The translations under genes and the position numbers were made by a program. A stretch of DNA of 64,000 bases from Promethearchaeota archaeon (GTDB lineage: Archaea > Asgardarchaeota > Heimdallarchaeia > Hodarchaeales > Hodarchaeaceae). Numbering within the stretch: position 1 is the first letter of the stretch; each line of letters opens with the position of its first letter. Below the pieces are notes generated by a model. That model was not told the origin of the DNA and searched no databases. It was given only the letters and a program-made list of their open reading frames with translations. Positions 55,223-60,575 of this stretch are shown here, piece by piece. The DNA is taken from contig JBHLMN010000002.1 in assembly GCA_048938105.1 (NCBI GenBank), forward strand, positions 320,001 through 384,000, written 5' to 3'.

Positions 55223-56731
55223 TTGGTTTCAATACTAAGAACCAGAGTTTCTCGCATATCTAATGCAGTGATATTTTTCGCATTAGCTTTGGTTCAAATC
55301 GTGATTGTTTCATGGATTAGTATTAGCCAAGAGGCGAAACCAGAATTTTTGGAATTCCAATGGATTACTCAGTGGCATTTTTTAGGTTTTTATATTTCTA
55401 TCAACCCTATGGCTGATCCTAGATTCACTGTTTTGTTAATAGTACTAACGGCTGGGCTGCAATTATTATTATTAGGATTTCTGGTAAATGTTGTGTTTTC
55501 AAATAAAAATATGGTTCAGATTTACCCTGAACCGTTATATGGTCCTTCTTATGCTCCTGAAGAAGCTCCATTGGTTGATAAAACAATCGAACTAGTAACA
55601 AGAGTTTCAAAAAAGGTGAGAATTAAAGTTAAAAAGATCTTTGTTTATCGAAAAGCGGTACCTAACGCATTTTCTCTTGATCTTCTGCCAATTCCTTTTT
55701 TTCGAAGACCATACTTAGTTCTTAACACTAATGTTTTAGAAATTCTGAATGATAACGAAATTGAGGCAGTTATTGCTCATGAACTTGCCCACGTTAAAAA
55801 TAGTGATAGTCTAATTCGATTAATATTATCTATTCCCCGTTTGTTCCTTAATCTTGTTTATATCTTTATATACCTACAAATCGTTACAGGTATATTAGTT
55901 GCAATTTTTGATACTTTTAATCCTGGAATAGCCTTAGAACGAGTTATTTTCCTGGGATTAATGTATTTGATTATAGCAATTGTCACAAAAATAACAGTTC
56001 ATTTTCTTTCCTCCGCTAATCGTCAGGCTGAATATCTGGCAGATTATTTTGCAGCTACTTTGGTTGGTTCAGATGTTTTAATTAACTCTTTAATTCATCT
56101 AGGCCAACGGAGTGAAACAATGCAAGTGCTATCCCGAGAGATTGAGTGGCTTGCGAGTCTTTCAGAAGAGAAAAAGCCTTCTAGTACATTTCTAGGGAGG
56201 ATTTATCAGCGGTTTCCCAAAACACAACTCAATGAGGATGTTGCTCGTGAAATTGCCCCAAAAATCTTCTTAGAAGAGAAACTTGAAGAGCTTGTGACTC
56301 ATTACGGTATAGATCTAGATATAGGGGAGAGGATACAGCTTGTAAATAGGGCTGTTCCTGTTTTACTAAAAAAGAGAGCTAAATATTTTATATCATTAGA
56401 AAAAAAAAGAGAAAAAGAAAATGAAGTAGACTTAACTCCTAGCATTCTAAAAGCAAAAACAATCGATTGGCGACATTTTGACTACAATGCCAGTCAAACC
56501 CTCGAAGACGAGGAAATTGAAAGTTTTATTGCCACGTTAATTGCTCAACCAGATAAAATGGTTTTTGAGCACGAGCTTTTTCAAACACCAGAAAAAGACG
56601 GTGATCACCCAAACTTTCGAGAAAGAATTCTTAGAATCTTCCGTATCTTTCATCTGAATGAGTATGAGAAGATTGTAGAGCAAATTGCCTCTGAAATCCC
56701 ATCAAAAGTCGTTTCTGATTCTCAATCATAA
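55223..56731 (+). CDS. M48-family membrane zinc metalloprotease with large insertion containing an EF-hand-like loop
   Basis: PNAFS, AHELAH, RQAEYLAD, and DHPNFRERI displaced about 180 aa downstream by an insertion. Confidence 0.88.
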   Translation: MVSILRTRVSRISNAVIFFALALVQIVIVSWISISQEAKPEFLEFQWITQWHFLGFYISINPMADPRFTVLLIVLTAGLQLLLLGFLVNVVFSNKNMVQIYPEPLYGPSYAPEEAPLVDKTIELVTRVSKKVRIKVKKIFVYRKAVPNAFSLDLLPIPFFRRPYLVLNTNVLEILNDNEIEAVIAHELAHVKNSDSLIRLILSIPRLFLNLVYIFIYLQIVTGILVAIFDTFNPGIALERVIFLGLMYLIIAIVTKITVHFLSSANRQAEYLADYFAATLVGSDVLINSLIHLGQRSETMQVLSREIEWLASLSEEKKPSSTFLGRIYQRFPKTQLNEDVAREIAPKIFLEEKLEELVTHYGIDLDIGERIQLVNRAVPVLLKKRAKYFISLEKKREKENEVDLTPSILKAKTIDWRHFDYNASQTLEDEEIESFIATLIAQPDKMVFEHELFQTPEKDGDHPNFRERILRIFRIFHLNEYEKIVEQIASEIPSKVVSDSQS

Positions 56732-57750
56732 AGAACTTTTTCCAACATGGCAGGAATTGACCGTTCGTCGGGTGTCATTAAATATAGCTTGATATTAGGT
56801 AATTTTCTAAGTTTTCCTATGATGGGAGTAGTGAGTTGAAGTGTTTGGCGTCGTGGAGTAAGTATAATTCGAACATCCTCTATTCGGCTAAGAATGGGTA
56901 GAAAATCCATCCCACTAGTGGCAAGAAGATCGGAAATAATAATAAGTGTTTTTTTACGTCCAATTTGATGAGAAAATTCTTTATTTGCTGCGAGTAATGC
57001 TGAAAAGATATCTGTTTTTCCCCCAGAACGAATATTGACTAATTTGGTAATAATATCCTGTGTGGTCATTTGTGAGTCAATGAATCTTTTAAAAACTTCT
57101 GGTTGGGTATCAAATCCAATCAAGGATATTTCTTTTATATTGAGCGTTAAGCTAAACAAAATAGATGTGAGAATAATCAGTTTGAGATAAGATAATACTG
57201 AATGACTCTTATCGATTAGTAATACTACATATTTTTGTTTCCAAATTCTTTTATTACAAATAACATGATTATACGTAAAATAAGAGTCCCCTGAAAGAAG
57301 GAAATTTACAATCGTTTTTTCTAGATCCCATGTTCTACCAGGAATATAGGGTATTTTTATAGGGTATCTTGAACGATCAATTGCATGAAAAATTCTCTTT
57401 GCATGCTTAAATAACTTAGGAATAAGCTTTTGTAAGAGAATCTGCTTTTCCTTAGGTGAAAAGTGCTCTTTAATTTGAAAAAATAAAGAATTGGACTCTA
57501 AAATGAAGTTAAAATTGGTAGAATCAATTTGCAATACTTCTGCGACAGTTCGTGGATAATTTTCAGCTAAAATTTCAATGACTCGGATGTTTTGTGTTTC
57601 TAAAGCTTGTTGTGTAAATTCCAAAGCAGTTTCAATATTTAATTTGTTTTGTAATTGATACTCATAGAGTTTTTCAAGTAAATAGGTAGGAGGTTCTGTA
57701 TCATGAATGGTTCGCGAACGAGAAGCGGGAGCAATGTCCCGCCTTAAGAT
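56722..57750 (-). CDS. vWA-domain protein (CoxE-like); frame open up to the MoxR 3' end, probably expressed as a -1 frameshift fusion
   Basis: MIDAS DKSHS, GGKTD, ISD. The track start is TTG 57624, but the frame has no stop for about 50 further codons upstream and no start codon in that stretch. Confidence 0.8.
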   Translation of the reverse strand: MLRRDIAPASRSRTIHDTEPPTYLLEKLYEYQLQNKLNIETALEFTQQALETQNIRVIEILAENYPRTVAEVLQIDSTNFNFILESNSLFFQIKEHFSPKEKQILLQKLIPKLFKHAKRIFHAIDRSRYPIKIPYIPGRTWDLEKTIVNFLLSGDSYFTYNHVICNKRIWKQKYVVLLIDKSHSVLSYLKLIILTSILFSLTLNIKEISLIGFDTQPEVFKRFIDSQMTTQDIITKLVNIRSGGKTDIFSALLAANKEFSHQIGRKKTLIIISDLLATSGMDFLPILSRIEDVRIILTPRRQTLQLTTPIIGKLRKLPNIKLYLMTPDERSIPAMLEKVLYD

Positions 57751-57761
57751 TTTTTTGGGGA
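57723..57761 (-). other. Candidate -1 programmed ribosomal frameshift signal
   Basis: mRNA UCC CCA AAA AAA UCU UAA, 5-nt spacer after the A7 run, hairpin AGGCGGGA-CAUUGC-UCCCGCUU. Confidence 0.7.
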
Positions 57762-58589
57762 AAAAATTGGTTCTGCGATTTCAAAAAGGCATTCTTCAAC
57801 TGTTTTATTAATATCTGGATGTAATTTGACTTTACCTGAATAAACTGCATAAATAGCAGGAAAAACAACATCTGGAGTTGTTGGTCTATTTTTCAGGAGT
57901 TGAGTAAGCTGAATTGCGGCCCTTACACTTGCTCCTGCTTCGAAATTCGTGGATGATCGTGTTTGATCAGTAAAAAGGACAATTTTCGCTATGAGATCGT
58001 CATCAGTGTATTTTGTCCTTAGTTGAACGATCCTTTTTGCTTCATCCCCAGATTTGTGTTCTAAGCGAATTAAAATACATCTGTCAAAAAATGCTTCTGG
58101 TAATGGATTGGTTCCTATATATTCAGCAGGATTTCTAGCGAAAATTGAGTAAAATTCATCTTTTGCTTGAATTTGTCCAAGCTGGGGAATTTCAATTTTA
58201 CGTTCATCCAAGGCTGCTAGAACTCCATTTATAGATTCACTCGGAGCACGATTAACTTCATTAAAGAAAAATAATCCTCCTTTTTGCATAGCATTTACCA
58301 ATGGACCAGGGATGAAACTTTCTTCGCCAAAACCTGTTTTCATGACCAAAGGTGGATCAAACCATCCCCTGAGATGAGTGATTGTGAGGTTCTCGTCACC
58401 ATCAACTCGATAAAAAGGTTGTCCGAGAGCCATTGCAATTGTTTTTACTAATTCAGTCTTACCAACACCCGACTCTCCCTCAATAACAGTAGCAATTTGG
58501 CTATTAATTGCAGCAAGGATTAGCTGAATTTCTTCGTCGAGACCGATTAGATTCTCCTGACATTTTCTAAGAATAACTTTGGAATTCAT
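57744..58589 (-). CDS. MoxR-family AAA+ ATPase (CoxD/GvpN-like)
   Basis: Walker A GESGVGKT, FIPGPLV.AM, Walker B region FFNEVNRA, NP.EYIGT.PLPEAFFDR, ASVRAAI. Confidence 0.92.
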   Translation of the reverse strand: MNSKVILRKCQENLIGLDEEIQLILAAINSQIATVIEGESGVGKTELVKTIAMALGQPFYRVDGDENLTITHLRGWFDPPLVMKTGFGEESFIPGPLVNAMQKGGLFFFNEVNRAPSESINGVLAALDERKIEIPQLGQIQAKDEFYSIFARNPAEYIGTNPLPEAFFDRCILIRLEHKSGDEAKRIVQLRTKYTDDDLIAKIVLFTDQTRSSTNFEAGASVRAAIQLTQLLKNRPTTPDVVFPAIYAVYSGKVKLHPDINKTVEECLFEIAEPIFSPKKS

Positions 58590-58622: not shown

Positions 58623-60575
58623 TTAGTCAAGTTCTAGGATTGCTTTTTTCAGTTTAACCTGACCATCTTCTTCATTGAAGCTAACCCACCCTTCCGATTC
58701 AAGCTCCTTTAATAAGCGTGTTGCAAAGATATTTTGAATAGCAACAGTTTTGGCAAGCTCTGTTAAATTTGCCTCTTGAATGTCCTGTAAAACAAATAAT
58801 ATGGCAAATTTAGGGTTTTTTGCAAGATTAATTCTTAATGTTTCGACTGCGGTCTTTAAATTAGCTGATTTTTCTTCCAGTTGTTGTTTTTCGGCAGATA
58901 GAGTTGAGATTGCAGATTCTTTTTCTTTTAATTCAGCTTTAATCTCTTTTAACTTCTTCTCGCTTTGTTCCCTCTCTATTTTTACGTCAATAAGCTGTGT
59001 TTGAAGATCTTTTATCTTGTTTTCATATTTATCGCGTTCACGTGCGATCTCAGCTTGTTTGGAACGAGAAGCATCGGCTTGTTGCGCAATTTCTTTTTGT
59101 CTTTGTCTTAAAATTTCCAAATCTTTTTGTTTCCCTTCTAACTCGCGGTCTTTTGTACTGAGTTGAGTTTTAAGGTCTACTAGCGATGTCTTTTGCTTTT
59201 CATGCTCAATTCTTAAATTTGTAAGAGCCTCTCGTAGTTCATTTCGATCAAATTCAATTGTTTGGATACGTTCGTCTTTTCCTTTTAGATCTATTTCTAA
59301 ATCTTTAAGTCGAGCCTCTAATGATCGGTTAGAGCTTTGAAGGTCGTCAATGAGGTCTTGAGCACTGTCTAGTCTTTCTTGGATCTCCTCTACTTCTGAT
59401 GTTTTTTCGCCCAAATCATGTTTTTGAGTAGTAATTTCTAAGGTTAGCATTTCAAAATTTTGTTTTACTTGTTTATATTCCTCTTTTAGCCTAATTAGCT
59501 GTTCTGAAAGTTTTTCAACTTCTTTCTCACTCATCTCTACCCTAAGATGTAGTTCTCTATTCTCATCTTCTTTCTGATCAAGAATTTGTCGTGTTTCTTC
59601 CAATTTACTACGAATAGCCACTGCTTCTTGACTTGTTTCGCCTGAATCTAGTAATAAATCTTCATTTTCTTGTTCCAACTTTGAAATCTGTTCTTTAAGC
59701 TGTTTTTCGTTTTCCTCTATAACCTGTATCTTTTGGTCTACTTGTTTGATATAATCTTCTTTTGACTGGAGTTTTTGATTCAACATTGCCTCTTGTTTCT
59801 GAATTTCATTTTGAAGAGTTTCAACTGCTTTTTTTAGTTTTACATTCTCCTCGGAATGAGTGCTTAGTACTTTAACCTCTGATTTCAAGTTTTCAATTTC
59901 AATATTGTTTTTAGAAGTTATATTCTCAATTTCTTGATCTTTATTCCCAATAACCTCTTGGAGTTGCTCTATTTCGAGTCGTGCGGACATTAATGCATTA
60001 CCAACAGTTTCAAATTCACTTTCCATCTTTTCACGGTCTTGAATAGCCTTTTTCAATTCACGTTGAGCTTCATCAAGCGATTCTTGGAGTCTGTTCAAAT
60101 CTTCGATTTGTGATGAAACCTTTCCTGAGTCAATTCCAGATTGGTTTCTCAATTGAGCAATTTCTGTTTCCTTTTCATCAAGTAGAATATGAAGATCGTC
60201 AATTTTCATTTCTAAGGCATTAATTTCTGATATTTTCTCTTTCAACTCCTGATTTTCTTCCTTGAGTCTTTCAAATTCCTCATTAGAGATAAATGTGGTC
60301 TCTGAATCAATATCGGAGCCAACTAAATCTAGATTGTCTATTCCTCTCAATCCTATTTTCGAAAATTCCGTGTGGGCTGATTTGTTAATTGATTGCATAT
60401 GCATTTTGAGCTTTTCAACCAGATCCTCTACATCTCCAATTGAATAATAAGACTTGGGCTGTTGTTGTAGATTTTTAATTACAGATTTAGCTTCGGATGA
60501 TATCCTTTGATCTAGGCGTCGTTCTTGTTCTGCAATACTTTTAATAAAGAGCAATTTGGGATTTTTGCGTTCCAA
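58623..60575 (-). CDS. Long coiled-coil protein with C-terminal winged-helix domain
   Basis: About 480 aa of E/K/Q/L heptads, then KFAILFVL...NLTELAKTV...ATRLLKELESEGWV; no Walker motifs. Confidence 0.82.
   Translation of the reverse strand: MERKNPKLLFIKSIAEQERRLDQRISSEAKSVIKNLQQQPKSYYSIGDVEDLVEKLKMHMQSINKSAHTEFSKIGLRGIDNLDLVGSDIDSETTFISNEEFERLKEENQELKEKISEINALEMKIDDLHILLDEKETEIAQLRNQSGIDSGKVSSQIEDLNRLQESLDEAQRELKKAIQDREKMESEFETVGNALMSARLEIEQLQEVIGNKDQEIENITSKNNIEIENLKSEVKVLSTHSEENVKLKKAVETLQNEIQKQEAMLNQKLQSKEDYIKQVDQKIQVIEENEKQLKEQISKLEQENEDLLLDSGETSQEAVAIRSKLEETRQILDQKEDENRELHLRVEMSEKEVEKLSEQLIRLKEEYKQVKQNFEMLTLEITTQKHDLGEKTSEVEEIQERLDSAQDLIDDLQSSNRSLEARLKDLEIDLKGKDERIQTIEFDRNELREALTNLRIEHEKQKTSLVDLKTQLSTKDRELEGKQKDLEILRQRQKEIAQQADASRSKQAEIARERDKYENKIKDLQTQLIDVKIEREQSEKKLKEIKAELKEKESAISTLSAEKQQLEEKSANLKTAVETLRINLAKNPKFAILFVLQDIQEANLTELAKTVAIQNIFATRLLKELESEGWVSFNEEDGQVKLKKAILELD

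Follow-up and report, generated by a model that had tools for sequence, protein, structure and literature searches.

A predicted -1 frameshift at a conserved slippery site would give a MoxR ATPase and a MoxR-vWA fusion from one locus in an Asgard archaeon

We suggest that adjacent MoxR and vWA reading frames of a Promethearchaeota archaeon (Hodarchaeales) are one recoded gene, from which a predicted -1 shift would give both an ATPase alone and an ATPase-vWA fusion, and we consider this reading probable on the basis of sequence comparison. Some ribosomes probably slip back one base at a conserved A-run placed before an RNA hairpin. The locus lies on the minus strand of the window, the analysed stretch of 64,000 nucleotides of contig JBHLMN010000002.1, and all coordinates refer to the window. 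The first-pass annotation had proposed that one locus makes both a MoxR ATPase and, through a -1 shift, a MoxR-linker-vWA fusion, and all of the comparative tests run lend support to the proposal. The signal appears, across the sequences compared, to alternate over evolutionary time with other arrangements, namely long homopolymers, genes fused in frame and ordinary separate genes. We found no earlier description of such a frameshift for MoxR in the literature.

The MoxR-class AAA+ ATPase ORF (frame 0, 57744-58589 with the stop counted in, minus strand) encodes 281 aa and ends with TCC CCA AAA AAA TCT TAA, matching the earlier reading base for base. Two overlapping heptamers, C_CCA_AAA (57759-57753) and A_AAA_AAA (57756-57750), form the putative slippery site at 57750-57759, both in the X_XXY_YYZ phase, and the A7 run itself occupies 57756-57750. 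The 0-frame stop TAA (57744-57746) stands one codon past the A-run. The -1 frame is shut on its upstream side by a UGA at 57781-57783, so that it overlaps the MoxR ORF by only 37 nt, and is open from 57780 to 56725; the entire -1 ORF (56722-57780, minus strand) has 352 codons from stop to stop and ends with TGA at 56724-56722. Its earliest ATG, GTG or TTG is the TTG at 57622-57624, in agreement with the earlier description of a stop-free frame lacking a start codon before this position. The predicted products, recomputed here with the sizes given before, are the 281 aa ATPase and a transframe protein of 622 aa (280 + 342) with the junction ...IFSPKKILRRD.

RNAfold returned the same GC-rich hairpin that had been noticed before, AGGCGGGA / CAUUGC / UCCCGCUU (57723-57744, minus strand), with an 8-bp stem (57744-57737 / 57730-57723), a 6-nt loop and an energy of -13.3 kcal/mol when the 45 nt past the run are folded. 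The hairpin begins 5 nt past the heptamer and its invariant GCGGGA core begins after 7 nt. The core, GCGGGA/UCCCGC, is kept in 16 of 19 same-genus orthologs, and the spacing is identical in 15 of the 16 hairpin-bearing loci, the exception being L010, in which the heptamer is embedded in an A13 run. The loop and the linker after it vary freely in the ortholog alignment, unlike the core. Selection at the protein level could act on the Lys-Lys and Arg-Asp...Pro-Ala residues, but the codon choice argues otherwise, the core being encoded by rare codons: CGG for 7% of Arg, GAC for 20% of Asp and CCC for 15% of Pro. Compensating changes had been named before as a check on the stem. The covariation score was reached by 42 of 500 shuffles and is not significant because the core never varies; the hairpin is supported instead by the conservation of its rare codons. 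Four of nine pairs are invariant, one pair occurs as GC, AU and GU, and a related strain has an A-U pair in place of G.U at 57743. The folding energy alone is not significant (z = -1.07 over the 71-nt region).

We compared 41 orthologous loci, 19 from the same genus (51-86% vWA identity) and 22 from a second family (27-34% identity). In 19/19 and 22/22 of them, respectively, the vWA frame stands at -1 and an in-phase A_AAA_AAN is present, so both the slip site and the phase, which the earlier annotation had wanted checked in orthologs, are kept throughout. The A6 core is invariant in the alignment, the A6 sites end A_AAA_AAC or A_AAA_AAU in strict codon phase, the A-run begins at codon position 3 in 17 of the 19 same-genus loci, and the 0-frame stop follows 1-15 nt past the run. 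The -1 frame has coding character from the slip site on: in the 120 nt past the A-run, the 19 loci have no stop in the -1 frame, and 57 and 73 stops in the other two frames. At 35% GC, this genome has many in-phase heptamers (0.8% of codons). Only 3 of its 3374 long ORFs, two of which are MoxR-vWA pairs, passed a filter requiring that the -1 frame stay open for 200 codons or more, that the overlap contain an in-phase heptamer and that a start codon be absent nearby.

Both halves of the locus encode recognizable domains. The MoxR ORF matched AAA_5 (E 6.2e-22) and AAA_3 (E 5.3e-14) of Pfam, and it contains Walker A (58455-58478), Walker B (FFFNE, 58257-58271), sensor 1, Arg finger and sensor 2; the Asn replacing the usual Asp of Walker B is a deviation shared with P0004, a natural fusion described below. 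Its sequence matches in PDB were NorQ (1.7e-8), CbbQ (1.2e-7) and the AAA domains of midasin, while Mg_chelatase (PF01078) had no Pfam match at E <= 0.1 and NCBIfam returned only a weak CobS match (E 0.03). The -1 frame product matched VWA_2 (E 6.5e-11) and VWA_CoxE (E 2e-7). The MoxR-vWA assignment made before is borne out by the AAA_5 match and the MIDAS-containing vWA domain, whereas its designation as CoxD/CoxE-type would be based solely on the modest VWA_CoxE match.

The first 21 residues after the shift (57691-57753, minus strand; KILRRDIAPA and a variable stretch) form a linker that is predicted to be disordered (AF2 pLDDT < 50 for residues 1-21) and differs in length and sequence among orthologs. 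It is followed by a conserved helical N-terminal domain of the vWA protein (57385-57687, minus strand; AF2 helices, residues 23-123; LLEKIYEYQLQ...ILESxSLxFQIK), about 60 nt of which lie upstream of the earliest canonical start codon, and by the vWA domain (56725-57261, minus strand), modelled by AF2 as a Rossmann-like fold of residues 165-342. The MIDAS motif consists of DxSxS (57199-57213), a Thr that belongs to GGKTD and falls within 57010-57024, and an Asp that belongs to ISDLL and falls within 56923-56937; D181, S183, S185, T247 and D275 are invariant across 19 sequences. The top Foldseek matches of the AF2 vWA model were the NorD VWA domain (9qhd_G) and the MDN1/Rea1 MIDAS domain (8ql1, 6qt8).

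The locus is flanked by genes for a coiled-coil winged-helix protein and an M48 peptidase, and no chlH/cobN-type partner was detected among the flanking genes. The upstream gene (58623-60575, minus strand) encodes a coiled-coil protein of 650 aa with a C-terminal MarR-type winged helix (Pfam MarR, E 4.9e-7, and coiled-coil matches) and ends 33 nt ahead of the MoxR start in the same unit. In 18/18 orthologous loci, and also in L080, the C-terminus of this protein immediately precedes MoxR.

The same genome has a paralogous MoxR-vWA pair (G000:C18) with U_UUU_UUA, followed by a stop and a different hairpin. This pair is present across the Asgard phylum, in about two thirds of sampled Asgard genomes, and its -1 phase is kept by 29/29 loci at class level and by 31/40 others at phylum level, the stems being lineage-specific. 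In-frame fusions, which had been suggested as something to look for among orthologs, do exist with the same AAA-vWA architecture: P0004, a fused paralog of 618 aa, adjoins an orthologous pair with the frameshift arrangement, and one family has orthologs of the paralogous pair that are fused (668-732 aa). The equivalent place of an in-frame fused paralog carries an A8 run.

According to the proposed mechanism, the majority of ribosomes would read frame 0 and terminate at TAA (57746-57744), producing the 281-aa AAA_5 ATPase. A fraction, pausing at the hairpin (57744-57723) while the P and A sites are occupied by A_AAA_AAA or C_CCA_AAA, would shift one base back and carry on in the -1 frame. The shifted product of 622 aa would comprise the AAA module, a flexible linker of about 20 residues, the helical domain and the MIDAS-type vWA domain. 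From these signals we infer that the shift occurs, and that at the A7 locus it is mainly ribosomal. The shift may serve to place a minority of covalently tethered vWA adaptors in MoxR hexamers, by analogy with NorQ hexamers, which take one NorD each, and with the ChlI/ChlD products of frameshifted chlD.

The same proteins could be made by transcriptional slippage, in which RNA polymerase adds one A to A7 and a subpopulation of A8 mRNA carries the fusion in frame; we consider this unlikely. Long runs are found among orthologs, A9-A13 in L005, L006, L010, L016 and L018, with the heptamer of L010 inside the A13 run noted above. Runs of at least 9 are a classic substrate of slippage, for instance in Thermus dnaX as referred to in PMC3711429, and the efficiency of chlD reporters climbed with A-run length, from 10% for A7 to 40% for A9 and 63% for A11 (PMC3711429). 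The three same-genus loci that lack the hairpin carry A10, A11 and A10, suggesting a switch to slippage-prone long runs. However, the A7 of the window and the A6-A7 of most orthologs are short for efficient polymerase slippage, a programmed slippage site having a homopolymer of about 9 or more A/T, and the strict codon phase is of consequence to a ribosome and irrelevant to a polymerase. The conserved hairpin, placed exactly 7 nt downstream, would have no known role in slippage and points to the ribosome, because a downstream structure, untranscribed while the run is copied, cannot act on the polymerase.

Production of two separate proteins is a rather improbable alternative. Translation of vWA would then begin at TTG 57624 or a non-canonical codon, or follow from coupled termination and reinitiation, and the A-run and hairpin would be kept for some other purpose, such as pausing that serves the coupling, mRNA processing or stability, or attenuation. 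Standard gene callers divide such loci in two genes, and NorQ/NorD, CbbQ/CbbO and RavA/ViaA are normally distinct polypeptides. In the paralogous family, a few loci have an ATG overlapping the stop (ATGA; L042, L049) and one family has ordinary separate genes with the ATG 10-13 nt past the stop (L026, L110, L111), so a free vWA protein is viable there. Against this, the TTG is not conserved as a start among the orthologs, whose earliest ATG, GTG or TTG lies at non-conserved positions 0-575 nt past the A-run (median 122), in many loci within or beyond the conserved helical domain, and the ortholog alignment has no conserved near-cognate start codon after the hairpin. The -1 frame opens just 13-91 nt upstream of the MoxR stop and always spans the heptamer. 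The hairpin is unlike a terminator because a T4 run follows it in only 2 of 16 cases, and the natural in-frame fusions indicate that the joined protein is functional.

Contigs of three studies (four runs), one of them from a ~91%-identical strain, all show A7, the length for which verification in reads had been advised. The explanation is almost certainly neither a plain fused gene with a sequencing or assembly error in its homopolymer nor a freshly broken pseudogene: a one-base change of the run would unite the frames, and a fused paralog with A8 exists, but the run shows no indel in those contigs, the identical -1 configuration recurs in 41 independent assemblies, and both ORFs are intact and conserved with their catalytic and MIDAS motifs present.

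To our knowledge, programmed frameshifting is documented for very few archaeal cellular genes, the usual examples being fucA1, in which the slippery heptamer is reportedly A-rich, and the methanogen chelatase genes. The heptamer-spacer-hairpin cassette offers a means to study frameshifting by the ribosomes of the closest archaeal relatives of eukaryotes. The proposed recoding also affects annotation, since the vWA genes are now called with truncated N-termini and without the ATPase half.

The nearest precedent of the predicted recoding is frameshifted chlD ("magnesium/cobalt chelatase"; Antonov et al. 2013, PMC3711429; Kuznetsov et al. 2022, PMC9227772), which the first-pass annotation had cited correctly as making AAA-only and AAA-vWA subunits. 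There, in bacteria and in archaea (Methanocaldococcus, Methanococcus), one locus supplies AAA+-only and AAA+-linker-vWA subunits through a -1 shift at a poly-A run or A-rich heptamer (PMC3711429, PMC9227772). The MoxR-vWA locus shares with chlD a C-terminal vWA/MIDAS domain reached by a predicted -1 shift at an A-run, in-frame fused relatives and annotation as two adjacent genes. It differs in its AAA+ clade (AAA_5/MoxR), in having a coiled-coil winged-helix gene instead of a chlH/cobN-type neighbour, in the conserved hairpin at fixed spacing, in its Asgard host and in a second paralogous family on a U-run. If true, the idea carries the chlD case over to a second AAA+ clade. Saccharolobus solfataricus fucA1 is a cellular archaeal gene in two ORFs expressed by -1 frameshift (PMC1616953); the shift in fucA1 restores a single enzyme, whereas two functional products are predicted for MoxR-vWA, and in the literature found it concerns one species, whereas the MoxR-vWA case is conserved across the phylum.

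The predicted fusion resembles NorQ/NorD, CbbQ/CbbO and RavA/ViaA in combining an AAA_5 ATPase with a vWA partner with intact MIDAS, but differs from them in that the vWA part has no conserved start of its own and would be covalently attached to one ATPase subunit at its C-terminal lid. Each NorQD hexamer is engaged through its pore by just one NorD, whose N-terminal domain docks on one NorQ subunit at the C-terminal lid (PMC13036017). A tethered adaptor in a minority of subunits, if true, would offer a simple means of enforcing this NorQD-like geometry of one adaptor per hexamer.

The architecture is also similar to that of midasin (Rea1/MDN1), in which a long flexible linker connects AAA_5-type modules covalently with the MIDAS domain at the C-terminus; midasin differs in having six fused AAA modules in one polypeptide of ~4700-4900 residues, with no recoding. 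P0002 matches three midasin AAA domains, with per-domain scores of 30-40 bits that are no better than NorQ (37.6 bits) and therefore show no special relationship to midasin. A more far-reaching reading, highly improbable when taken as a whole, is that the recoding is ancient and Asgard-wide, that two paralogous AAA_5-MIDAS systems would each tether one MIDAS adaptor per hexamer, and that "AAA_5 ring + flexible linker + MIDAS" would be an architectural forerunner of eukaryotic midasin.

A further comparison is provided by dnaX, as summarized in PMC3711429: in E. coli, A_AAA_AAG and a downstream hairpin let one gene give the two AAA+ clamp-loader subunits tau and gamma, and in Thermus the same outcome is reached through transcriptional slippage on A9. 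This contrast of hairpin and long run mirrors the alternation among MoxR-vWA orthologs. The dnaX shift truncates, the long form being the 0 frame, whereas the predicted MoxR-vWA shift extends. The natural fusion P0004 has the dnaX polarity, in that the -1 frame reaches a stop 3 codons past its in-phase A_AAA_AAA.

We detected that the MoxR ORF of the window, encoding a 281-aa ATPase on the minus strand (58589..57744, ending ...IFSPKKS), runs into an overlapping vWA ORF in the -1 frame. The final MoxR codons, TCC CCA AAA AAA TCT TAA, contain an A7 run (57756-57750) and two heptamers in the X_XXY_YYZ phase, C_CCA_AAA (57759-57753) and A_AAA_AAA (57756-57750), all present as the first-pass annotation had described them. 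The GC-rich 8-bp hairpin claimed there was also returned by RNAfold as the dominant local structure at 57744-57723 (stem 57744-57737 / 57730-57723, minus strand, loop CAUUGC), with an energy of -13.3 kcal/mol for the 45 nt 3' of the A-run, in a host genome of 5.85 Mb and 35% GC. The folding z-score of the 71-nt region is -1.07, which is not significant; in the fold of lowest energy the A-run is also paired to the U-run lying 5' of it, a weak alternative. The -1 frame is closed upstream by a UGA (57783-57781, minus), is open to 56725 (352 codons) and has its earliest ATG/GTG/TTG at the TTG at 57624, in agreement with the earlier description of a stop-free frame lacking a start before that TTG. 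A shift on either heptamer would give the identical 622-aa product with the junction SPKK-ILRRD, and conceptual translation reproduced both predicted products, the 281-aa ATPase and the 622-aa AAA-linker-vWA fusion with its IFSPKKILR junction.

The search of 40 related genomes with the -1 protein detected 19 orthologous pairs of the same genus, with vWA identity of 51-86% and MoxR identity of 65-94%. All 19 have the vWA ORF at -1 with respect to MoxR, and every pair carries an A-run of 6-13 within the overlap together with an in-phase A_AAA_AAN heptamer; the run begins at codon position 3 in 17 of them (the remaining two being A9 and A11), and the shortest overlap able to host the shift is 13 nt. 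The hairpin was found in 16/19 orthologs, with its core GCGGGA ... UCCCGC exactly 7 nt past the heptamer and with variable loops. In the -1 frame this core reads CGG GAC ... CCC GCN, where CGG accounts for 7% of Arg, GAC for 20% of Asp and CCC for 15% of Pro codons in the window's genome, and the region directly 3' of the stem varies in letters and length. A core of rare codons that is kept next to a freely changing flank is the pattern expected of selection on RNA structure; the covariation count was uninformative, since the six core pairs are invariant. An intrinsic terminator was rejected as the role of the hairpin, because even T4 follows the stem in only 2/16 orthologs.

In a class-wide search, the gene pair was also detected in 27/31 genomes of a second family. 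The -1 phase and the invariant (C/A)GA AAA AAA G are present in 22/22 of the second-family loci examined, so that the slippery site and phase, whose conservation the first-pass annotation had proposed to check, are kept in both sets of relatives. Second-family stems differ from that of the window (for example CCUUACA/UGUAGGG, CUCUAUC/GAUAGAG, and CCCUACU/AGUAGGG), and a conserved GAUGAACC follows the stem.

A conserved U-run (U6-U9), coding for an I-F-F-P motif, lies 3-12 nt 5' of the A-run in the window (57761-57770, minus) and in the orthologs, and could act as an additional slip site or as a component of the signal. At L002, a related locus, the U-run reads U_UUU_UUC in phase and leads into the -1 frame of the vWA ORF.

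Ribosomal -1 frameshifting classically requires an in-phase heptamer, a spacer and a downstream stem, and such a stem is without influence on RNA polymerase while the A-run is being copied. The heptamer phase, the 5-7 nt spacer and the conserved stem of the locus therefore favour a reading in which the ribosome would shift by -1 at the A7 locus, on the heptamer before the stem, over slippage during transcription, on which the stem could not act. In the A10-A13 orthologs, slippage during transcription probably adds to ribosomal frameshifting or replaces it. The three orthologs without the hairpin have A10, A11, and A10; two of these loci are closely related, so they represent two events, not three.

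Separate translation of the vWA protein is much less likely than ribosomal frameshifting. Over the 120 nt past the A-run, the 19 loci together contain 0 stops in the -1 frame vs 57 and 73 in the other frames. The positions of their earliest ATG/GTG/TTG are not homologous and range from 0 to 575 nt past the A-run (median 122), and the alignment revealed no near-cognate start conserved among the orthologs. Moreover, a conserved helical domain (LLEKIYEYQLQ...) begins ~25 residues past the junction, which in the window is ~20 codons ahead of the TTG, and together these features make independent vWA initiation unlikely. An assembly error, likewise much less likely as an explanation of the two frames, is not the source of the A7 junction: the run length flagged for verification in the first-pass annotation was checked on contigs from four public runs (three studies), which show A7 and no indel across the junction, and the -1 phase is kept in the orthologs. 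One of the four runs represents a strain that differs by 51 substitutions in 590 nt, among them a G to A at 57743 (coding strand) by which a G.U pair of the stem becomes A-U.

The window's genome has an in-phase X_XXY_YYZ heptamer at 0.8% of its codons. ORFs of at least 200 aa (n=3374) were filtered for three features together: a -1 frame that stays open past the stop for 200 codons or more, an overlap containing an in-phase heptamer, and the absence of a start within 30 nt. Only three passed: the window locus, another MoxR-vWA pair, and an acyl-CoA dehydrogenase ORF followed by a -1 frame with DinB_2 and G_GGA_AAA in the overlap (G000:C14:231115-233177, equal to L081:616-2678). The last is probably a chance case, as the DinB domain begins 150 residues into the open frame and starts are available.

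The second MoxR-vWA pair is a paralog outside the window (G000:C18:563-2496; L027/L031), with U_UUU_UUA, a stop and a 9-11 bp hairpin unlike the window's. Its 289-aa MoxR ends CGU UUU UUA UAA; next come the stem AAUCCCGGGAG/CUCUCGGGAUU and, at -1, a vWA frame of 370 codons that lacks a start. At class level this pair is present in 76/82 genomes and at phylum level (Asgard) in 148/220 sampled ones; it is in -1 phase at 29/29 class-level loci and at 31/40 further phylum-level loci cut out. The heptamers include U_UUU_UUA/C, A_AAU_UUU/C, and G_GGU_UUU, or U_UUU stands immediately 5' of the stop. Stems just 5' of a conserved GAUGA vary by family (GGAGGA/UCCUCC, GGAGAU/AUCUCC, GGGAAUUC/GAAUUCCC, GAGGACAU/AUGUCCUU, GGGGGCGG/CCGCCUCC), and none is evident in family f14. 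The f14 loci (L088-L092, L116, L117) have the pair in -1 phase with an overlap of 10-13 nt in 6/7 and 52 nt in L091; the one element prone to slipping in them is a U_UUU ahead of the stop or of CAA, and no start codon follows for 47-245 nt. If recoded at all, f14 would use a non-canonical single-tRNA slip.

The paralogs are in-frame fusions of 668-732 aa in one Asgard family (f24: L102, L103, L114, L115) and separate genes in the +1 frame, with ATG 10-13 nt past the stop, in two others (f4, f22: L026, L110, L111, L101); an ATGA overlap is seen at two paralogous loci. The pair thus changes in evolution between fused, recoded and split forms, as has been reported for chlD. The search for longer relatives added a further in-frame fusion of the kind the first-pass annotation had suggested looking for, the 618-aa Hodarchaeales protein P0004 (L080:3001-4857), whose gene directly follows a frameshift pair of family A (A8, -1) on its contig. 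Its AAA half is 38% identical to the window's MoxR (residues 12-280) and its C-terminal half 29% identical to the -1 protein (residue 48 onward), with a ~40-residue linker between them. Near L080:3812-3830 its junction has an in-phase caA AAA AAA gca, and the -1 frame stops after three codons, so P0004 could also yield an AAA-only short form, with dnaX-like polarity.

The same -1 shift is known from chlD, where the shift on A7-A11 yields ChlI-like and ChlD-like (AAA-vWA) subunits (PMC3711429; PMC9227772), which bears out the precedent cited in the first-pass annotation. Reporter efficiencies are 10-63% (PMC3711429), and frameshifted chlD occurs in bacteria and Methanococcales, with fused relatives (PMC3711429; PMC9227772), much as the MoxR-vWA paralogs interchange their forms. 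The window locus itself was rejected as a chlD, having neither a Mg_chelatase domain nor chelatase neighbours. MoxR-vWA would be a second AAA+/vWA family recoded in this way, with a clearer stimulatory structure than chlD and phylum-wide conservation. A review from 2021 names no recoding in archaea beyond fucA1, some viruses and the chelatase case (PMC8211752), the available text supplements of PMC3711429 mention no MoxR or vWA cluster, and we found no description of MoxR/AAA_5-vWA or Asgard frameshifting in the part of the literature covered.

By its sequence the 0-frame protein is a MoxR-class ATPase (Pfam AAA_5 at 6.2e-22, AAA_3 at 5.3e-14), with Walker A, sensor 1, Arg finger, and sensor 2. 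AAA+ Walker B normally carries Asp; here, as in P0004, it reads FFFNE (58257-58271, minus), with Asn for Asp. Its solved sequence relatives are NorQ, CbbQ, and the AAA modules of midasin; a special midasin kinship was rejected, since the 131-bit total comprises three domains of 30-40 bits each, not above NorQ. The -1 protein matches VWA_2 (6.5e-11) and VWA_CoxE (2e-7), and its MIDAS motif (DxSxS, T, D) is invariant across 19 sequences. In the AF2 model built on the ortholog alignment (pLDDT 82.9, pTM 0.77), the junction is followed by 21 disordered residues; residues 23-123 form a helical domain and residues 165-342 a vWA fold. The vWA part had no PDB match by sequence at E <= 0.01, so that only the fold search is informative; it ranks highest the VWA domain of NorD, from the NorQD complex, and the MIDAS domain of MDN1/Rea1.

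In NorQD, each hexamer is engaged by a single NorD, whose N-terminal domain sits on the lid at the C-terminus of one subunit (PMC13036017). From these structures and frameshifted chlD we infer that the -1 shift may serve to set the stoichiometry of vWA-bearing subunits. The gene 33 nt upstream of MoxR (58623-60575, minus) encodes a 650-aa coiled-coil protein that ends in a MarR-type wHTH; it keeps this position in 18/18 orthologous loci and at L080, and its product is likely a partner or substrate of the MoxR-vWA system.
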